DNA from: a bacterium
GTDB lineage: Bacteria > UBA10199 > 2-02-FULL-44-16 > JAAZCA01
Assembly: GCA_021810905.1 (NCBI GenBank)
Contig: JAJZQH010000014.1
Span: forward strand, 12,369-76,368
Direction of reading: 5' to 3'
DNA: 64,000 nt
Under the pieces are notes generated by a model that did not search any database, had not been told where the DNA came from, and was given only the letters and a program-made list of their open reading frames with translations. Shown here piece after piece: positions 7,823-58,152 of the stretch (position 1 is its first letter; each line of letters starts with the position of its first letter). The position numbers were made by a program, and so were the translations under genes.

Positions 7823-10800
7823 TTACCGCGGAGTCACTAGGATGAAACGGGTGGAGGTTTCCTGCCAGGTGTCCAGCAGGCTGCGGGCTTGCGGGCTCTT
7901 TGTATCATTATAATAGTCAGTCAGGATCTCCCTGAGCGCATCTGTCTTGCCCGGTTCGTCCGCGAGAGATATTGCCGTCACGTCGGAATGCAGGCGCTCG
8001 CGCGCGCTGCCGTCCGGATCAAAGAGATATATCTCTCCGCCGGTCATGCCTGAGCCGACGCAGGGTCCGCATCTGCCGAGCACCACGCCAGTGCCGCCTG
8101 TCATGTATTCGAACGCGTATTTGCCGACCCCCTCGCAGATCAGCAGCGCGCCAGAGTTGCGCACTCCAAAGCGCTGGCCAGCCCTGCCGGCGATATAGAG
8201 ACGACCGCCTGTTGCACCGTATGCAGCGGAATTGCCGACGAGGTGTGGAGCGCAATCGCCTCCAACCCCGGCAGGCGGCGCAATCACGACGCTCGCATTG
8301 CCGCTCATCGCCTCTGCGACGCCGTCGTTTGCAAAGCCGTCGAGCCTTAGGGTCATGCCGTCCGTCGCGGCAAAGCCGAATCCATGTCCGGAATAGCCCT
8401 TGGCGTGGATCTCAATTCGTTCCGCGGTTTCTGCCACCCTCTCCCTTGATGGGAGAGGGAAGGGTGAGGGTGCATCCGATCTCAGCCTGGCTATTTCTCC
8501 TGCAAGCGTTGCGCCCACGGCGTGGTCGCCGTTGCAAAGCGATATGCGTATCGGCGCATTCCCGGCGCGTCCGTCGAACACGGCGCGGGCGGAAGAGAGG
8601 ATCTCGGCGTTCCTTGCGGATACGGCACGAAATTCCGTTTGAACACATCGTGCAGTGCGCGCCTCGCCATGGAAGTACATGAGCATATCCGTGAAATCGA
8701 GACGATCCCAGCGCGCCATACCTGATACGCGAGGTTTCAAGAGATCCACGCGGCCCACGAGTTCGCGCGGGTGTGTGAGGCCCAACGTAGCGAGTATGTT
8801 CCTTAAGTCGTCGCCCATGCATTCGAGATAGCGGATCACGCCGCTTTTTGCTTCATTATATCGATCCATCGCTGCTGCTTCATCGGGATGCACTCCCTTG
8901 AGATAGCCGCGCATGAAGCGTTTGTTCTGTTTTTCCTCGTCCTGCGTCGCGATGCCCACCGGGCAGTTGCCCTTGTTGCACCCACGGCAGAATATGCAGC
9001 ACTCGGCCACGAGGAGCGGCGTGCCTATGGAGACTTCATCGGCGCCGAGCGCGATGATCTTTGCCGCATCCATGCCGCACTTGATGCCGCCGTCCGCGCG
9101 CACGCGCACGCGCGAGCGGATTCCGTTTACGACAAGATATTGATGCAGCTCGGAGACGCCGCGTTCGATCGGCAGTCCCGCGTGCGAGATGCTGCCGGAG
9201 CTCGCGGCGCCGGTGCCGCCCTCAAAGCCGCTCACCACGATCACGTCGGCGCCTGCCTTTGCAACTCCAACGCCGATCGTCCCGAGATTTGTGACCGATG
9301 GAACCTTGACCGACACGATTGCTTCAGGATGCAGCTCGCGGAGATTGGTGATCAGCTGTGCAAGATCCTCGATGCTGTAGATGTCATGATGCGGGGGAGG
9401 GCTGATGAGATCCACGCCAGGCTTCGTCTTTCTGATGCGCGCGATTTCCTCGGTGACTTTTCTGCCGGGCAGGTGGCCGCCCTCGCCGGGCTTGGCGCCC
9501 TGGCCGATCTTTATCTCGATCTCGTCCGCGTGTACGAGATACGTGGCGTCCACGCCGAACCTGCCGGACGCGATCTGGCGGATCCTGCTGCGATCGGAGG
9601 CCCACTCGCCGTCCTGGTTTCGACGCTCGTCTTCTCCGCCCTCGCCGGAGCATGAGGCTGCATCGAAGTGGTTGAAGGCCGACGCTATGGCGCGATGTGC
9701 CGTCGAGTTGAGCGCACCGTGCGACATGGCTGCCCCGCGTATCGTACTCCTTACGATCTCTCTTGTGTCCGCGACTTTTTCGAGATGCGGCGGCATGTCG
9801 CTTTTTTTGAATTCGAGCATGTCGCGCAGATATACGGGAGGTGTATCTTCAAGCAGTTTCACGAACCGGTCGTAGTCGCCGTTTGAATTTCCGTTGCGCG
9901 CAACGAGCTGGAGCGCGTCTGTCACTTCCTTGCGATAGACCGTCATGTTTTTGTTTCGCGCTATGGCATTCGAACCGACGGCCGAGCGTGCGACTGTGTC
10001 CTCGTAGATGTCGTCCATGGTGATGCCGCCGAGCCGCGAGACCGTATCCGGGATGTAGTATTCGACGACATCCGAAGAGATGCCGATCGCCTCGAAGAGC
10101 GCCGAGCCGCGATAACCGGTGAGAGTCGTGATGCCCATCTTCGACATGATGCGCCTCAGCGTGTGCACAACCGACTTCACAACGTTGGCGTACGCTTCGT
10201 CAGGTGGGATATCGGAAAAAGTCGTGGCCAGGTGCAGCATGGCGTACGGGTTCACGGCCGTGGCGCCGTAGGAGAGCAGGATCGCACAATCGTGGCCTTC
10301 GTGCGTGCTGCCCGTCTCGGCAATGATGCTGGCAAAGCGCCGGAGGCCCCTAGCGGCGAGCGCCTGATGGATGGAGCTCACAACGAGCAGCATGGGAACC
10401 GGCGGCCTTTCGCCGCGCGTGGCGGCGTAATCCGTAACAACGAGTATCGACGCCTCCTTGGAGCGTATCACGCGCACGGCTTCGTCGGTGAGGTCGTGTA
10501 TCCTTCTCACGATTTCGCGCGGGCTGCCTTTGTCGACGAAAGTCGCGTCGATCTCGTGCGCCTTTAGTTCAGAGATATCTGATGAGAGGATCGCCTGCAT
10601 CTGATCGTTCGTCAGTATCGGGTGATCCAACTTATACTGCGGCCACGACATGTAATCGCTGCGCCTGCTGATGCGCGGCGAGCGGCCCAGGTACACCGTA
10701 GTATCTATGGCGCCGCCCTCGCGCAGCGGATCGATGGGCGGATTTGTGACGACAGCAACGATCTGGTGAAGGAAGCTGTAGAGCCTGGAATGGTTTTCGC

Positions 10801-22623: not shown

Positions 22624-22698
22624 AATTGATTGCCACCCAAAGCCGCCTCTGATAATTTTTCATTCGATGGGCGTCTCTTCGGAACCTACGGGGGATTC

Positions 22699-24687
22699 AT
22701 GAGAGATATGCAGAAGCGCCTGTGGGCACTCGTTGCCGCGGCAGTGGTCTCCGCAATACCTGCTGCGGCGGGCGCGGACAGTCCGACGTTCAACGCTATA
22801 TTCTTTCATCCCGCCACCGGCCGGAATACTTACCTCATGCTCCAGGGAACCGAGACCCTGCATCAGATGCAGTTCGACGTGGGCGAATATTTTTCGTACG
22901 GATGGCATCCGCTCGACATACGCACGACCGCAGGATCTCGAGTGCAGGGCGTGATCAGCCAGTTGGTCGTAAGCGATTTCACCGCCGCGATCGGCGCAAC
23001 TGATTGGCTGCAGTTCGGACTCGACGTGCCGGTGGTCCTCATCAACAGCTTCCGCGAGCCTGACGCCGTGCAAGGTGCTCCGACCGCAAATCACTTCAAC
23101 CTGAGCGACATACGTTTTGAGGCAAAGGGCAGATTCCTTGATGCATGCAAGACGCGCATCGGGCTCGCGCTCGTGCCGTTCGTCACCTTCCCCACTGGCA
23201 GTGACGCGCATTACGTGGGCGACCCGGGCTTCACCGGAGGCGCCACGATCGCACTTGACGGCAAAGTTTCGAGAAAGATCGGACTCACGCTCAACGTGGG
23301 CTATCAGGGCGGTCGAAAGGTCAAGATCTCGAACGTCGAGTTCCAGCACAGGCTGCTCCTCGGCGGCGGTATCCAGGGCAACATATTCCGCGGGCTCGAC
23401 GTATTCGGTGAGATCAACGCGATAGCGGCGTTCAACAAACTCCTGCACGACCGCGATATGAATCCGACGGAATTCATGGCCGGCGCAAGATGGGACGTGG
23501 GGAAGACGGGCCTTACGGTTCAAGGCGGGGCCGGCACTTGCCTGGTCTGCGGCGTGAAGGGCGCACGTATCAGGGCCGTGGCCGGTCTCAAGTACAGGCT
23601 CAGCACTCCCAAGTATCGCCAGCTCGAAGATCAGCGTGCGGGCGTCTGCACGCTGCGGGGGTATTTCAGCAAGTCACGGCTCTATGAGCTCAAACAGAAT
23701 TGTCCGCAGAAACCTGAGGACTATGTCCAGGGAGTGCACGACGACGCGTGTCCCAAATATTATGAGCTGCAGGAGCTGGCGGGGTTAATCCTCAAGTGTC
23801 CCGTGAGGCCGGAGGATTTCAATCCGAGCATGCATGATCCCGCATGCCAGAAGGTATATGACATGCCGGATGAATTTTCGCCTGCGGATGTACGCAACAT
23901 CGTGTCAATGGCGGTGGCGGAGATGAGCCTCATCTGTCCCGCTGATCCCACGAATTTCAACGCGCAGATCCACGATGCGGCCTGCCCCAAATATTACGAT
24001 CTCAAGGAGACCGAGGCGCTTGCCAGCCGCTGTCCATCCAACGCGGACGACTATAAGGAAGGCGTGGACGATCCGTCTTGTCCCAAGTACTACACCCTGC
24101 GAGAGGCCTACGGCGATATCGACTGGAACGAGGTTAACAAACTTCGCAGCATCGATCTGGATCGTTACGGCTCCGCCATCCTCGGCGGCGAGATCCAGAC
24201 GTTGCGGCCCGTGTATTTTGACTTTGCGAAGTCGAACCTCCTGCCGACAATGCTTCCTGTGCTCGATCAGGTTATTCGCGTCATAAACGAAACTCCGTGG
24301 GTGAGCGTGGTGAGGATCGGCGGGCACGCGGACGCGCGAGGCACCGTGGATGCGAATGAGAAGATCTCCATGAAGCGCTCACAGACCGTGATCGATTACA
24401 TGAAATCGCATGGGGTGCGCAGCGACGTGCAGCTCATACCGGTAGCTTACGGTTCGTACAGGCCCGCAGCCTCCAACGAAACCGAAGAGGGACGCGCCCT
24501 CAACCGCCGCGTCATATTCACGGTCTCGAGCTACAAGATCCCGAAATATACGCCATCCGCGATAAAAAAGGCGTCAGCAGCGCCGGCGCCATCCGCGCCG
24601 ATGGGGGAGACTCCCTCGTTAGAAACGGGCGCCGAGCCAGTCAAAGAGGGAGAGCCGCAGCTTCCCCCGTCGCGATGGTCGGAGTAA
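22699..24687 (+). CDS. OmpA-family outer membrane protein with four or five tandem two-cysteine repeats
   Basis: Signal peptide MRDMQKRLWALVAAAVVSAIPAAAGA and an N-terminal beta-barrel-like region. Middle holds repeats CPxxPEDYxxGVHDDACPKYYxL. C-terminal OmpA domain reads VRIGGHADARGTVDANEKISMKRSQTV..LNRRV. Confidence 0.75.
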   Translation: MRDMQKRLWALVAAAVVSAIPAAAGADSPTFNAIFFHPATGRNTYLMLQGTETLHQMQFDVGEYFSYGWHPLDIRTTAGSRVQGVISQLVVSDFTAAIGATDWLQFGLDVPVVLINSFREPDAVQGAPTANHFNLSDIRFEAKGRFLDACKTRIGLALVPFVTFPTGSDAHYVGDPGFTGGATIALDGKVSRKIGLTLNVGYQGGRKVKISNVEFQHRLLLGGGIQGNIFRGLDVFGEINAIAAFNKLLHDRDMNPTEFMAGARWDVGKTGLTVQGGAGTCLVCGVKGARIRAVAGLKYRLSTPKYRQLEDQRAGVCTLRGYFSKSRLYELKQNCPQKPEDYVQGVHDDACPKYYELQELAGLILKCPVRPEDFNPSMHDPACQKVYDMPDEFSPADVRNIVSMAVAEMSLICPADPTNFNAQIHDAACPKYYDLKETEALASRCPSNADDYKEGVDDPSCPKYYTLREAYGDIDWNEVNKLRSIDLDRYGSAILGGEIQTLRPVYFDFAKSNLLPTMLPVLDQVIRVINETPWVSVVRIGGHADARGTVDANEKISMKRSQTVIDYMKSHGVRSDVQLIPVAYGSYRPAASNETEEGRALNRRVIFTVSSYKIPKYTPSAIKKASAAPAPSAPMGETPSLETGAEPVKEGEPQLPPSRWSE

Positions 24688-24704
24688 AATCTTGTGACAA
24701 TCAA

Positions 24705-24794
24705 CCCCTCCCCTTTGTAAGGGGAGGATGGGAGAGGTAGACCGTGGATACAACCACGATCTACCTCCCCTCGCCCCTCCTTACAAAGGAGGGG
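24705..24794. repeat. REP-like palindromic element: two inverted units of CCCCTCC-TTTGTAA-GGAGGGG..GGGAGGTAGAYC
   Basis: Unit at 24705-24743, palindromic spacer GTGGATACAACCAC, inverted unit at 24758-24794. The same unit recurs at 57518-57555. Confidence 0.7.
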
Positions 24795-24817: not shown

Positions 24818-24845
24818 TTGACATCGTTCGGATATCATATATAGC
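24818..24845 (+). promoter_or_regulatory. candidate sigma70 promoter for guaB
   Basis: TTGACA at 24818-24823, a 16-nt spacer, then TATAGC at 24840-24845. The very short distance to ATG 24854 suggests either a leaderless transcript or a true start at ATG 24869. Confidence 0.35.
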
Positions 24846-24853
24846 GTCCCGCC

Positions 24854-26320
24854 ATGTTAGGCGAACGCATGCAGGAAGGGCTCACTTTTGACGATGTCCT
24901 GCTAATACCTGGGCACTCGAAACTCCTGCCAAAAGACGTAGATATCGCTACAAAGCTAACCTCCGAAATTACGCTCAACATCCCGCTCGTCTCCGCTGCA
25001 ATGGATACGGTCACCGAGGCCGCGACGGCAATCGCCCTGGCGCAAGAGGGCGGAATCGGCATCATCCACAAGAACTGGACCGCTGATCGGCAGGCTGCAG
25101 AGGTCATGCGTGTGAAGAAATACGAAAGCGGCGTGGTGACGGAGCCGATCACGGTATCACCATCGATGACGCTCTCGGAACTGCGGGAGTTATCGCGAGA
25201 GCATAATATCTCGGGTTTTCCGGTCACCGACGGCATGAGGCTCGTCGGCATCATCACGAATCGCGACATCACTTTTGAAGACGACCTATCGCGCAAGGTC
25301 ATCGAACTCATGACCCCGAGAGACAGGCTCGTCACCGCGGCACAGGGCATAACGCTCGATGAGGCGCGCACGATCTTCCGCGAGCGACGCATCGAGAAAC
25401 TCCCTCTCATCGACAAGGACGGGAATCTCGCCGGGCTCATGACGGTGCGCGATCTCAAGACCGCAACGCGATACCCGAACGCGGCAAAGGATTCGCGCGG
25501 CAGTCTCAGGGTGGGAGCTGCAGTGGGCGTGGGCGAGGCTGAATTCGCGCGCGCCGAGGCCTTGCTCGCGGCCGGCGTGGACGCCGTCGTTGTAGATACC
25601 GCGCACGGGCATTCCGCCGGCGTCATAGGCATGGTGAAAAAGTTGCGAGACGCATTCAAGGACGCCCAGATAATCGGCGGCAATATCGCAACAGCGGATG
25701 CGGCAAAGGCGCTCATCGATGCGGGGGCGTCCGGCGTGAAGGTCGGCGTCGGCCCCGGCTCTATCTGCACGACCCGCGTGGTAGGCGGCTGCGGCGTCCC
25801 GCAGATCACCGCAGTGGCGGACGTAGCGCACTACGCGCGTAAGCACGGCGTTCCTGTGATCGCTGACGGCGGGATAAAATTCAGCGGAGATATCGTAAAG
25901 GCGCTCGCTGCCGGCGCATCGAGCGTGATGATAGGCTCCATGTTCGGCGGTACGGACGAATCTCCGGGAGAGGTCGTCCTCTACCAGGGCCGCAGTTACA
26001 AAGTCTACCGCGGCATGGGCTCCATTGCCGCCATGCAGAAGGGGAGCAAGGATCGTTACTTCCAGGGCGACGTAACCGAGGCCGGCAAGCTCGTGCCCGA
26101 GGGCATCGAGGGCAGGGTGCCGTATCGAGGCAAGCTGCGCGACGTGCTCTATCAGATGATCGGCGGGCTGCGCTCGGGCATGGGATATACAGGCGTCGCC
26201 TCGATCGAGGAACTCTCCACAAAGACGAAGTTCATCCGAATCACCGCGGCCGGCCTGCGCGAGTCGCACGTGCACGACGTGATCATCACCAAGGAAGCAC
26301 CGAATTACTGGCAGGAATAA
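24854..26320 (+). CDS. guaB: IMP dehydrogenase
   Basis: [11 protein letters not shown], tandem CBS domains, catalytic loop [20 protein letters not shown]. The start may instead be 24869. Confidence 0.92.
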
Positions 26321-43137: not shown

Positions 43138-43262
43138 CTCCCCGCGGCAAGCCGCGGGGAATCATCGGCAACATTTCCGATCACCCTCACCCTTCCCTCT
43201 CCCCTCAAGGGAGAGGGTGGCGGAAACCCCGCAGCAAGCTGCGGGGTTTCATCGGATTGGCA
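43138..43262. repeat. cluster of three REP-like hairpins
   Basis: Hairpin a: CCCCGCGG-CAAG-CCGCGGGG at 43140-43159. Hairpin b: 43171-43229, the near-identical copy of the gltB insert, with CCCTCTCCC-CTCAA-GGGAGAGGG. Hairpin c: AAACCCCGCAGC-AA-GCTGCGGGGTTT at 43224-43249. Hairpins a and c are followed by the related tails AATCATCGGCAA and TCATCGGATTGGCAA. Confidence 0.7.
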
Positions 43263-56563: not shown

Positions 56564-57511
56564 ATGTTCGATCTTATCGCCAGCAGGATCGTATACCGCC
56601 TGCTCTCATTCGAGCAAGGGACGTATGCAGGCGACGCCGTGCATTTTTTCGTCATGGACGTGATGAAGATCTTCGTGCTGCTCGCGGTCGTCATCACGCT
56701 CGTCAGCTATCTCCGCTCGTATTTTCCGGCGACGCGCTCGCGCATGTTGCTGGCCGGACGCAAGCGTTTCGGCTATCCCCTGGCCGGCGGCCTTGGAGTC
56801 CTGACTCCGTTCTGCTCGTGTTCGGCGGTGCCGATGTTCATAGGCTTCATCGAGGCCGGCATCCCGCTCGGCGTAACGATGACCTTTCTGATAGCGAGTC
56901 CCACCGTAAACGAGATAGCGATAGCGCTGCTCTTCGGGCTCTTCGGCTGGAAGGTGACGACTATCTATATAGCGAGCGGGCTCGCGATTGCGATCGTCGG
57001 CGGCATCATAATCGATGCGCTGAAGATGGAGAGGCACGTTGAGGACTACGTGTGGAATCTGCGCTTCGACAACGTGTCCGATGCGGTGATCCCTTCGCAG
57101 CGGGAGAGAATAGTACAGGCCGTCGCGCACATGCGTTCGATCATCTCGAAAATCTGGATATTCGTCTTCGTCGGCATCGGTATCGGCGCTACGATCCACG
57201 GTTTTGTCCCTGCATCGTGGATCGTGGAGCACTTGGGCGCCAGGCAGTGGTGGTCGGTGCCAGCGGCGGTGCTGATAGGCGTGCCGCTCTACGGCAACGC
57301 TGGCAGCACTCTCCCCGCGATTGGAGAGCTCATCGCCAAGGGCGTGCCGCTGGGCACGGCGCTGGCGCTCATGATGTCGATCACCGCGATCTCGCTGCCG
57401 GAACTCATCCTGTTGCGACGAGTGCTCAAACCCCGGCTGCTTGCGGTATTCGTAGGAATCGTTGCCGCGGCGATCGTCTGCGTGGGCTATCTCTTCAACG
57501 CGATCCTGTAA
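56564..57511 (+). CDS. arsP: ArsP-type permease (DUF318) with TPFCSCS motif
   Basis: Eight predicted transmembrane segments. Conserved VLTPFCSCSAVPMF, the motif reported for organoarsenical efflux permease ArsP (recalled from the literature, not searched). Confidence 0.75.
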   Translation: MFDLIASRIVYRLLSFEQGTYAGDAVHFFVMDVMKIFVLLAVVITLVSYLRSYFPATRSRMLLAGRKRFGYPLAGGLGVLTPFCSCSAVPMFIGFIEAGIPLGVTMTFLIASPTVNEIAIALLFGLFGWKVTTIYIASGLAIAIVGGIIIDALKMERHVEDYVWNLRFDNVSDAVIPSQRERIVQAVAHMRSIISKIWIFVFVGIGIGATIHGFVPASWIVEHLGARQWWSVPAAVLIGVPLYGNAGSTLPAIGELIAKGVPLGTALALMMSITAISLPELILLRRVLKPRLLAVFVGIVAAAIVCVGYLFNAIL

Positions 57512-57517
57512 ATATTA

Positions 57518-57555
57518 CCCCTCCTTTGTAAGGAGGGGTAGGGGAGGTAGATCCT
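57518..57555. repeat. REP-like unit CCCCTCC-TTTGTAA-GGAGGGG-TAGGGGAGGTAGATCC (same family as 24705-24794)
   Basis: Begins 7 nt after the arsP stop. Hairpin stem of 7 bp with a TTTGTAA loop. Near-identical to the inverted unit at 24758-24794. Confidence 0.7.
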
Positions 57556-57588: not shown

Positions 57589-58152
57589 GTGGATAAGGCT
57601 AAAACGCGCGGCATGGAAAACCTGATCAGGGAAATGCTCTCAAAGCTCGGCGAAGATCCTTCGCGCGAGGGGCTCCGCAAGACGCCAGCTCGCGTGAAGG
57701 AATCGCTCGGATTCCTGACCGAAGGTTATCGCCAGGACCCTCGCGCGCTCATCGAAAATTCTGTATATTCGGACAAGCACGAGGAGATGGTGCTCGTGCG
57801 GGATATTCCCATCTACAGCCTCTGCGAGCATCACCTGCTGCCGTTCTTCGGCACTGCGCACGTGGGTTACATTCCCAACGAAAAGATCGTGGGGATCTCC
57901 AAGATCGCGCGCATGGTCGATCTCTTCGCGCGCAGGCTCCAGGTGCAGGAGCGGCTCACCAATCAGATTGCTGAGACGCTCATGGAAGTACTCAAACCCA
58001 AGGGAGTGGCGGTAGTGATCGACGCGGAGCACCTCTGCATGCAGATGAGGGGAGTGCAGAAGCGCGGCACCTCGGTCGTCACATCCTCAATGCTCGGCGC
58101 GTTCCGCCGTAAGCCCGAGACGCGCGCGGAGTTCATGAATCTGATCAAGTAA
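57589..58152 (+). CDS. folE: GTP cyclohydrolase I
   Basis: CEHHLLPF and [16 protein letters not shown] are signature motifs. Start could be MENLIRE at 57613. Confidence 0.9.

Follow-up and report, generated by a model that had tools for sequence, protein, structure and literature searches.

A family of dispersed repeats with the design of an intrastrand DNA triplex, and its linkage to DUF559 nuclease genes

Short repeats of the type CCCCTCC-TTTGTAA-GGAGGGG occur at two places in a 64,000-nucleotide (64-kb) stretch of bacterial DNA, hereafter called the window, once as an inverted pair behind an OmpA-like gene and once as a single copy behind an arsP-like gene. Their position directly downstream of stop codons raised the question whether they are REP-type terminators or mRNA stabilisers, as proposed in a preliminary description based on the sequence alone, or elements of another kind. 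Inspection of both loci showed that the repeats are real and consist of three units of approximately 36 nt, and the observation made in that description was therefore confirmed. The features of the two loci were:

24685-24706 (+): left flank AAAATCTTGTGACAATCAAC(C), which begins at the stop codon of the OmpA-like gene.
24707-24742 (+): unit A, stem type T3, CCTCCCC-TTTGTAA-GGGGAGG-ATG-GGAGAGG-TAGAC; pyrimidine (Y) arm CCTCCCC(TT) at 24707-24715, loop TGT at 24716-24718, purine (R) arm (AA)GGGGAGG at 24719-24727, linker ATG at 24728-24730, mirror (reverse-Hoogsteen) tail GGAGAGG(TA) at 24731-24739, GAC at 24740-24742.
24743-24757 (no strand assigned): 15-nt centre of the pair, CGTGGATACAACCAC, with the mini-palindrome GTGG/CCAC.
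24758-24794 (-): unit B, stem type T5, inverted, CCCCTCC-TTTGTAA-GGAGGGG-CGA-GGGGAGG-TAGATC; on the + strand it reads GATCTA-CCTCCCC-TCG-CCCCTCC-TTACAAA-GGAGGGG.
57518-57553 (+): unit C, stem type T5, solo, CCCCTCC-TTTGTAA-GGAGGGG-TA-GGGGAGG-TAGATC; Y arm CCCCTCC(TT) at 57518-57526, loop TGT at 57527-57529, R arm (AA)GGAGGGG at 57530-57538, linker TA at 57539-57540, tail GGGGAGG(TA) at 57541-57549, GATC at 57550-57553; no inverted partner lies downstream.

Unit A starts 19 nt after the stop codon of the OmpA-like gene (ORF 22630-24687), and the A/B pair separates this gene from guaB (24854-26320). Unit C starts 6 nt after the stop codon of the arsP-like permease gene (ORF 56564-57511) and lies between this gene and folE (57589-58152). 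A search with the 21-mer, allowing up to three mismatches, found only these sites, whereas 0.00 matches were expected from 100 shuffled sequences. Consistent with this result, an nhmmer profile built from 119 units found exactly these three in the window, with E-values from 2e-14 to 1e-11. Three details of the preliminary description required correction. The stem of unit A, CCTCCCC/GGGGAGG, represents a different stem type from that of units B and C and is not a degraded CCCCTCC. The stems are 9 bp long with a TGT triloop, rather than 7 bp with a TTTGTAA loop. Furthermore, the tail is not a free 3' extension but a mirror copy of the purine arm. As single strands, the pair was predicted to fold into three hairpins, two outer 9-bp stems with TGT triloops and a central stem formed by the two tails (z = -8).

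Absence of further copies, or their restriction to the window by a local duplication, had been named in advance as an outcome that would count against a dispersed family. A scan of a genome collection with CCYCYCCTTTGTAAGGRGRGG returned at least 118 stretches, most of them from Nitrospirales or Nitrospira MAGs and others labelled Pseudomonadota, Acidobacteriota, Planctomycetota, Bacteroidota and more. A metagenome scan for the subtype of the window (tail ending in TAGATC) returned at least 120 stretches. The metagenome contigs contained about 2.2 further units per 10 kb and up to 8 units in 14 kb. Of viral contigs, only 8 gave a hit, which indicated that phage carriage is not a main route of spread.

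Presence of the pair in relatives, likewise proposed beforehand as a check, was examined at the orthologous OmpA-guaB junction. The nearest homologues of the OmpA-like protein of the window, which belongs to a metagenome assembly (ENA ERZ27237050), were 63-65% identical and came from MAGs labelled Pseudomonadota. Three of these relatives retained the BamB-like, OmpA, guaB, guaA synteny but lacked the pair. The guaB promoter-like stretch CTTGACA-N17-TATATAG..CCGCC-ATG (24822-24853 in the window) was conserved in the relatives (loci L121, L122 and L123; retrieved loci are designated here by L numbers), whereas the rest of the spacer was not. In L122 (7990-8200), a different inverted repeat (GCGAGAAACG...CAAGGCGAGAAACG and its complement) surrounds a terminator-like hairpin, so that the same spacer hosts different repeats in different lineages. 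These results indicated that the pair is a lineage-specific insertion and not a conserved regulatory part of the junction.

Comparison of more than 400 copies showed that each unit reads CCYCYCCTT-TGT-AAGGRGRGG-N3-GGDGRGGTA-GA, with a linker whose most frequent length was 3 nt. The 3' tail has A or T exactly where the 5' arm has T, and this relation held in five stem types:

5' arm CCCCTCC: tail GGGGAGG in 202 of 206.
5' arm CCTCCCC: tail GGTGGGG or GGAGGGG in 183 of 187.
5' arm CTCCCCC: tail GAGGGGG in 15 of 16.
5' arm CCCTCCC: tail GGGAGGG in 8 of 8.
5' arm CCTCTCC: tail GGTGAGG in 5 of 6.

Mirror tails outnumbered direct-repeat tails 970 to 12, and TAGA followed the tail in 95-99% of 414 units. 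Extra hairpins in the linker or in the loop were tolerated while the three 7-mers were kept. In a variant family, found in L022, L032, L045, L063, L065, L096, L107, L117 (Acidobacteriota), L079 (Phycisphaerae) and L269 (viral contig), a second hairpin is inserted in the linker between the purine arm and the third strand (AACCACCCC-hairpin-CCA-CCCCTCC-loop-GGAGGGG). Pairing of the tail with the partner unit or with the unit's own 5' arm was rejected as an explanation, since in-register pairing always leaves two non-Watson-Crick positions and since partner stem types are mixed (T3+T5, T2+T5, T2+T4, T4+T5). Mimicry of Shine-Dalgarno and anti-Shine-Dalgarno sequences (CCTCCTTT / TAAGGAGG) explained neither the other stem types nor the mirror tail.

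A mirror relation has no meaning for duplex-binding proteins or for Watson-Crick folding, but is the rule for an antiparallel purine-motif triple helix. The order Y arm, loop, R arm, loop, G-rich third strand on one strand, found in all three units of the window and in more than 400 relatives, is the design of a class II purine-motif intrastrand DNA triplex. With the flanking TT, AA and TA included, the three strands are 9 nt long with 3-nt loops and would form nine triads of the types G·G:C, A·A:T and T·A:T. All nine triads are canonical in units B and C, and eight of nine in unit A, whose tail obeys the mirror rule at six of seven positions (eight of nine when TA is counted); the sister copies in L189, L232 and L233 have the perfect tail GGAGGGG. 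An almost invariant GA(T/G)C follows the third strand.

This structural kind is already known from the BoxC repeats of E. coli, renamed PIT elements and then TMECO (Hoyne and Maher, 2000; Holder et al., 2015, PMC4666352). TMECO, with the order CCCTCNCCC-N3-6-GGGNGAGGG-N3-GGGNGAGGG, is reported to fold as a triplex in vitro, to be intergenic without strand bias, to form inverted pairs that always combine type A with type B, and to have shown no promoter or terminator activity in earlier work (PMC4666352). The units studied here share its strand order, strand length and similar loop lengths, G·G:C triads with a few A/T·A:T, an intergenic location without strand bias, and occurrence as solo units and as inverted pairs of two types. 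They differ in sequence (CCYCYCCTT/TGT rather than CCCTCNCCC), and thereby do not fit the TMECO consensus, in the added GA(T/G)C, and in their hosts, which are Nitrospirota and other uncultured lineages rather than Proteobacteria and cyanobacteria. The window also contains a second repeat family, CCCTCTCCC-TTGAT-GGGAGAGGG-AA-GGGTGAGGG, at 8437-8470 (+) and 43183-43218 (-), which matches the TMECO pattern except for a 2-nt second loop. The claim in the preliminary description that the two families are distinct thus held for sequence only, as both share one architecture of Y arm, loop, R arm, loop and mirror tail.

To investigate which genes accompany the repeats, the loci retrieved with the DNA pattern were searched for coding sequences. 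In L089 (Nitrospinae) and L010 (Nitrospirales), an ORF of about 120 codons lies exactly between a 5' unit and an inverted 3' unit; the tail of the 5' unit ends 10-13 nt before the ATG, and the 3' unit starts 2-3 nt after the stop codon. The encoded protein belongs to DUF559 (Pfam PF04480, E about 1e-33), a YcjD/Vsr-like group. Among all loci seeded only by DNA pattern, 9 DUF559 genes were found in the genome loci and 7 in the metagenome loci. All 16 have a unit at or within about 100 nt of their 3' end, and most also have one on the 5' side. The hosts carry at least six phylum-level labels. One of the eight viral-contig hits showed the same arrangement, and the variant family also lies next to DUF559 genes in L063, L079 and L269. 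No DUF559 gene was present in the 64-kb window, and the rest of the source genome was not scanned. A few kb from the intact cassette in L010 (5268-5960), three tandem partial DUF559-like fragments show about 40% identity to residues 22-72. In L217 (1650-2090 and 2950-3390), two frameshifted DUF559 cassettes in inverted orientation are both truncated at the same point within the 3' unit (CCCCTCCTTACAAAG|), which suggests an inverted duplication with its breakpoint in the hairpin loop.

The same link was observed from the protein side. Of the 120 closest homologues, 90 showed C-terminal read-through into a downstream unit, and 82 of these carried STSPxPSLxRRG, the translation of TCTACCTCCCC-nnn-CCCCTCC-TTACNAA-GGAGGGG. 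Two such proteins occupy one conserved locus in many Nitrospirota assemblies (HAD, then DUF559, then convergent RecQ), which is bracketed by units. In the few lineages examined, the gene thus appears resident and vertically inherited. In L125-L140, a tandem heptamer array (CAGCTGT)n, with a copy number that varies between assemblies, lies immediately upstream of the 5' unit of this locus, about 60-120 nt upstream of the DUF559 gene.

The link extended to BoxC proper. E. coli ycjD ends in ...RRSPSP and a stop codon (CCCTCTCCC-TGA) and has a TMECO about 170 nt downstream. In E. coli MG1655 (NC_000913.3; L262, 5185-5420, minus strand), the gene is followed by a degenerate duplicate of its last ~70 nt and then by a type A TMECO, which looks like a decayed 3' unit plus a pair. 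At least 60 of 120 YcjD homologues end in PSPRPSP followed by the stop codon (CCCTCACCC-nnn-CCCTCTCCC-stop), that is, in the C-strand of TMECO, and in Enterobacter the stop codon lies in loop 1 of an inverted type B TMECO that is followed by a forward type A. Holder et al. state that they never found transposase-like genes near these repeats (PMC4666352), and a search of the literature on DUF559, ycjD, TMECO and intrastrand triplexes, restricted to open-access papers, found none linking such repeats to DUF559. The link is apparently unreported.

Counts within E. coli pointed in the same direction. The ycjD gene is single-copy and present in 3378 of 5426 complete E. coli genomes, and is reported to be present in phylogroups A, B1 and C and replaced by eefRABCD elsewhere (PMC12817139). 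The supplement of Holder et al. lists TMECO numbers for individual strains. Grouped by our own assignment of these strains to phylogroups, the numbers were 19-30 for A/B1/C, 1-2 for B2 and 6-15 for D/E/F. This correlation rests on a few phylogroups and is confounded by phylogeny. A spread sample of current genomes agreed in outline but was not clean, since some genomes without the ycjD-adjacent copy still carried 10-20 TM places; the per-genome result is suggestive.

The structure of the window pair was compared with that of 134 convergent pairs, in which the centre between the two TAGA ends fell into the following main classes, the remaining pairs having other lengths:

2 nt: 45 pairs, giving the palindrome GGTAGATCTACC.
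8 nt: 26 pairs, often ATC(A/G)TGAT, which looks like a start codon fused to a stop codon.
20 nt (counted between TAG and CTA): 7 pairs, including that of the window.
355-526 nt: 7 pairs, the gene-bearing class.

The centre class of the window recurred in L038, L189, L232 and L233, in different contexts. L189 and L232 also share its left extension AAAATNTTGTGACAAYCAAC, although their right flanks differ. The composite therefore seems to be copied as a whole, and the extension may belong to the copied unit or be a preferred target. L155, with a DUF559 gene, and L210, without one, are versions of one chromosomal site between the same units. An all-against-all BLAST search of flanks for empty sites and target sites gave only diverged orthologues, and at 70-90% identity the comparisons were too noisy. 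No clean empty site, excision or insertion footprint, or target duplication was recovered.

The explanation that best fits these observations, to which a probability of about 0.6 is assigned, is that the three units belong to a dispersed DNA repeat family of the same structural kind as BoxC/PIT/TMECO but with a sequence of its own. In this view, units occur solo, as unit C; as inverted pairs with inward-facing tails and two different stem types, as A/B; and as full cassettes in which a DUF559 (YcjD/Vsr-like PD-(D/E)xK) nuclease gene lies exactly between the two inward-facing TAGA ends. The A/B pair has the outline of such a cassette, with a 15-nt centre where the gene would be, and in that sense is comparable to a REPIN or MITE; it sits in the dead zone between a stop codon and the next promoter. 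The analysis itself demonstrated the architecture and its covariation, the dispersal, the mixing of stem types within pairs and the physical linkage to DUF559 genes across phyla. By contrast, folding of the unit as a triplex in single-stranded DNA, which was not measured for this family, is inferred by analogy with TMECO, and it is likewise an inference that the nuclease recognises the folded unit or the TAGATCTA junction, nicks there and so copies or maintains the repeats, as RAYT does for REPINs. No biochemical activity is known for YcjD-like proteins. The conserved syntenic positions of DUF559 genes fit a domesticated enzyme, but equally fit a host gene that merely attracts or retains repeats.

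Among the alternatives, the one that survives best, although unlikely, is that DUF559 is a homing-type endonuclease gene whose homing site is the inverted pair with palindromic junction GGTAGATCTACC, gene-less pairs being unoccupied or decayed sites rather than transposed copies. In line with this view, 45 of 134 pairs have the perfect junction TAGATCTA, with the gene or variable centre always inserted exactly there, L155 and L210 represent one site with and without the gene, and the 8-nt centres look like the result of exact loss of the ORF. The DUF559 protein is homologous to PDB 3HRL (E 3e-17), related to Vsr, and similar in sequence to the catalytic domain of homing endonuclease I-Bth0305I (3R3P, E 1.4e-3) and to the PADLOC HEase model. 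However, compared with I-Bth0305I and Vsr, there is no intron or intein context, and the protein of about 120 aa has no DNA-binding extension. The gene appears single-copy and syntenic in the few lineages examined and is not obviously invasive, unlike an actively homing gene. Moreover, homing does not explain how hundreds of gene-less pairs and solo units arose at unrelated sites.

Somewhat less likely is that DUF559 is a host repair or structure-processing nuclease that co-occurs with triplex repeats because it resolves them, while the repeats spread by another route or through instability driven by replication or recombination. The syntenic, single-copy gene, the homology to the Vsr repair nuclease and the reported status of TM loci as hot spots of rearrangement are consistent with this possibility. 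It does not explain why the gene itself is precisely bracketed by, and overlaps, its lineage's own units in at least six phyla.

A role at the RNA level, as an intrinsic terminator or 3' mRNA stabiliser for the OmpA-like gene and arsP, is doubtful. Both loci lie just after stop codons, and the predicted folds are very stable, so that a 3' hairpin could incidentally slow exonucleases. However, on the sense strand the hairpins are followed by a G-rich tail and not by a U-tract, and the only terminator-like hits were weak and on the antisense strand. Orientation bias relative to gene ends, which the preliminary description had set out as a point to examine, was mixed; this ORF-based test was crude, being affected by spurious ORFs in GC-rich DNA, and was used only qualitatively. 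The pair was not conserved at orthologous junctions although the guaB promoter was, and no Rfam family reached its threshold, searches at gathering and E-value thresholds yielding only generic miRNA-like hairpin matches far below the gathering threshold. Mirror-tail covariation has no meaning for an RNA hairpin, and purine-motif triplexes are reported not to form in RNA (PMC4666352).

The label closest to that of the preliminary description, a canonical REP/BIME (REPIN) element mobilised by a RAYT (Y1 HUH transposase), is very unlikely. The units resemble REPs in being short (20-40 nt), imperfectly palindromic, extragenic, multi-copy repeats found solo and as inverted pairs of two types, as with E. 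coli Y/Z REPs, and in a GTAG-like tetranucleotide. They also resemble the REPIN-RAYT system in a seemingly single-copy, vertically inherited nuclease-type gene flanked by the repeats, and in a repeat abundance that tracks presence of the gene, as far as the E. coli counts allow. However, (G)TAGA lies 3' of the hairpin, after linker and tail and 10 nt from its foot, rather than at the 5' foot; plain REPs have no equivalent of the mirror tail; and the bracketed gene encodes a PD-(D/E)xK (Vsr-like) protein rather than an HUH Y1 enzyme, without biochemical evidence. A regular-expression pre-screen followed by Pfam found no Y1 transposase next to any unit in about 1.6 Mb of seeded loci. The three PF01797 proteins detected were an ordinary IS200 (L050, 3520-4050; E 7e-33) with its own flanking hairpins (CCCCGTGGTCTTGCCACGGGG), 300 nt from a unit but unrelated to the family, and two genes located kilobases away (L030, L071). 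As whole genomes were not scanned, this leaves it undecided whether a Y1 gene flanked by units exists elsewhere. Taken together, the interpretation in the preliminary description was only partly supported: a dispersed extragenic family of solo units and head-to-head pairs was substantiated, but its reading as a REP-type terminator or mRNA stabiliser was not. Derivation as a MITE from a DDE-type insertion sequence, suggested by inverted terminal units in elements of 70-150 nt, recurring variable centres and gene-bearing relatives, can be set aside, as no target-site duplication was found (the flanks only extend the palindrome as TTY...RAA) and the only gene found between such ends was DUF559, not a DDE transposase.

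BoxC/PIT/TMECO repeats have been known since the 1990s. They fold as DNA triplexes in vitro and mark unstable loci, but no origin, mobility mechanism or partner protein has been reported. The present analysis shows that the same architecture exists as a large, previously undescribed family in Nitrospirota and other uncultured phyla, and that, in every lineage examined, the local version of the repeat brackets or overlaps a small DUF559 nuclease gene, including E. coli ycjD. For genome annotation, this explains the recurrent spurious C-terminal tails on DUF559 proteins (STSPxPSLxRRG, PSPRPSP). A broader and more tentative possibility is that YcjD-like DUF559 nucleases are the cognate enzymes of BoxC-type triplex repeats throughout bacteria. 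This would be a second partnership of the REPIN-RAYT type, in which a domesticated Vsr-like PD-(D/E)xK nuclease recognises an intrastrand DNA triplex, or the palindromic TAGATCTA junction between two of them, and copies or maintains the repeats; the pair and the solo unit of the window would then be non-autonomous members of that system. The linkage makes the question testable, predicts a structure-specific activity for a widespread protein of unknown function, and would give a natural protein ligand for intramolecular triplex DNA.
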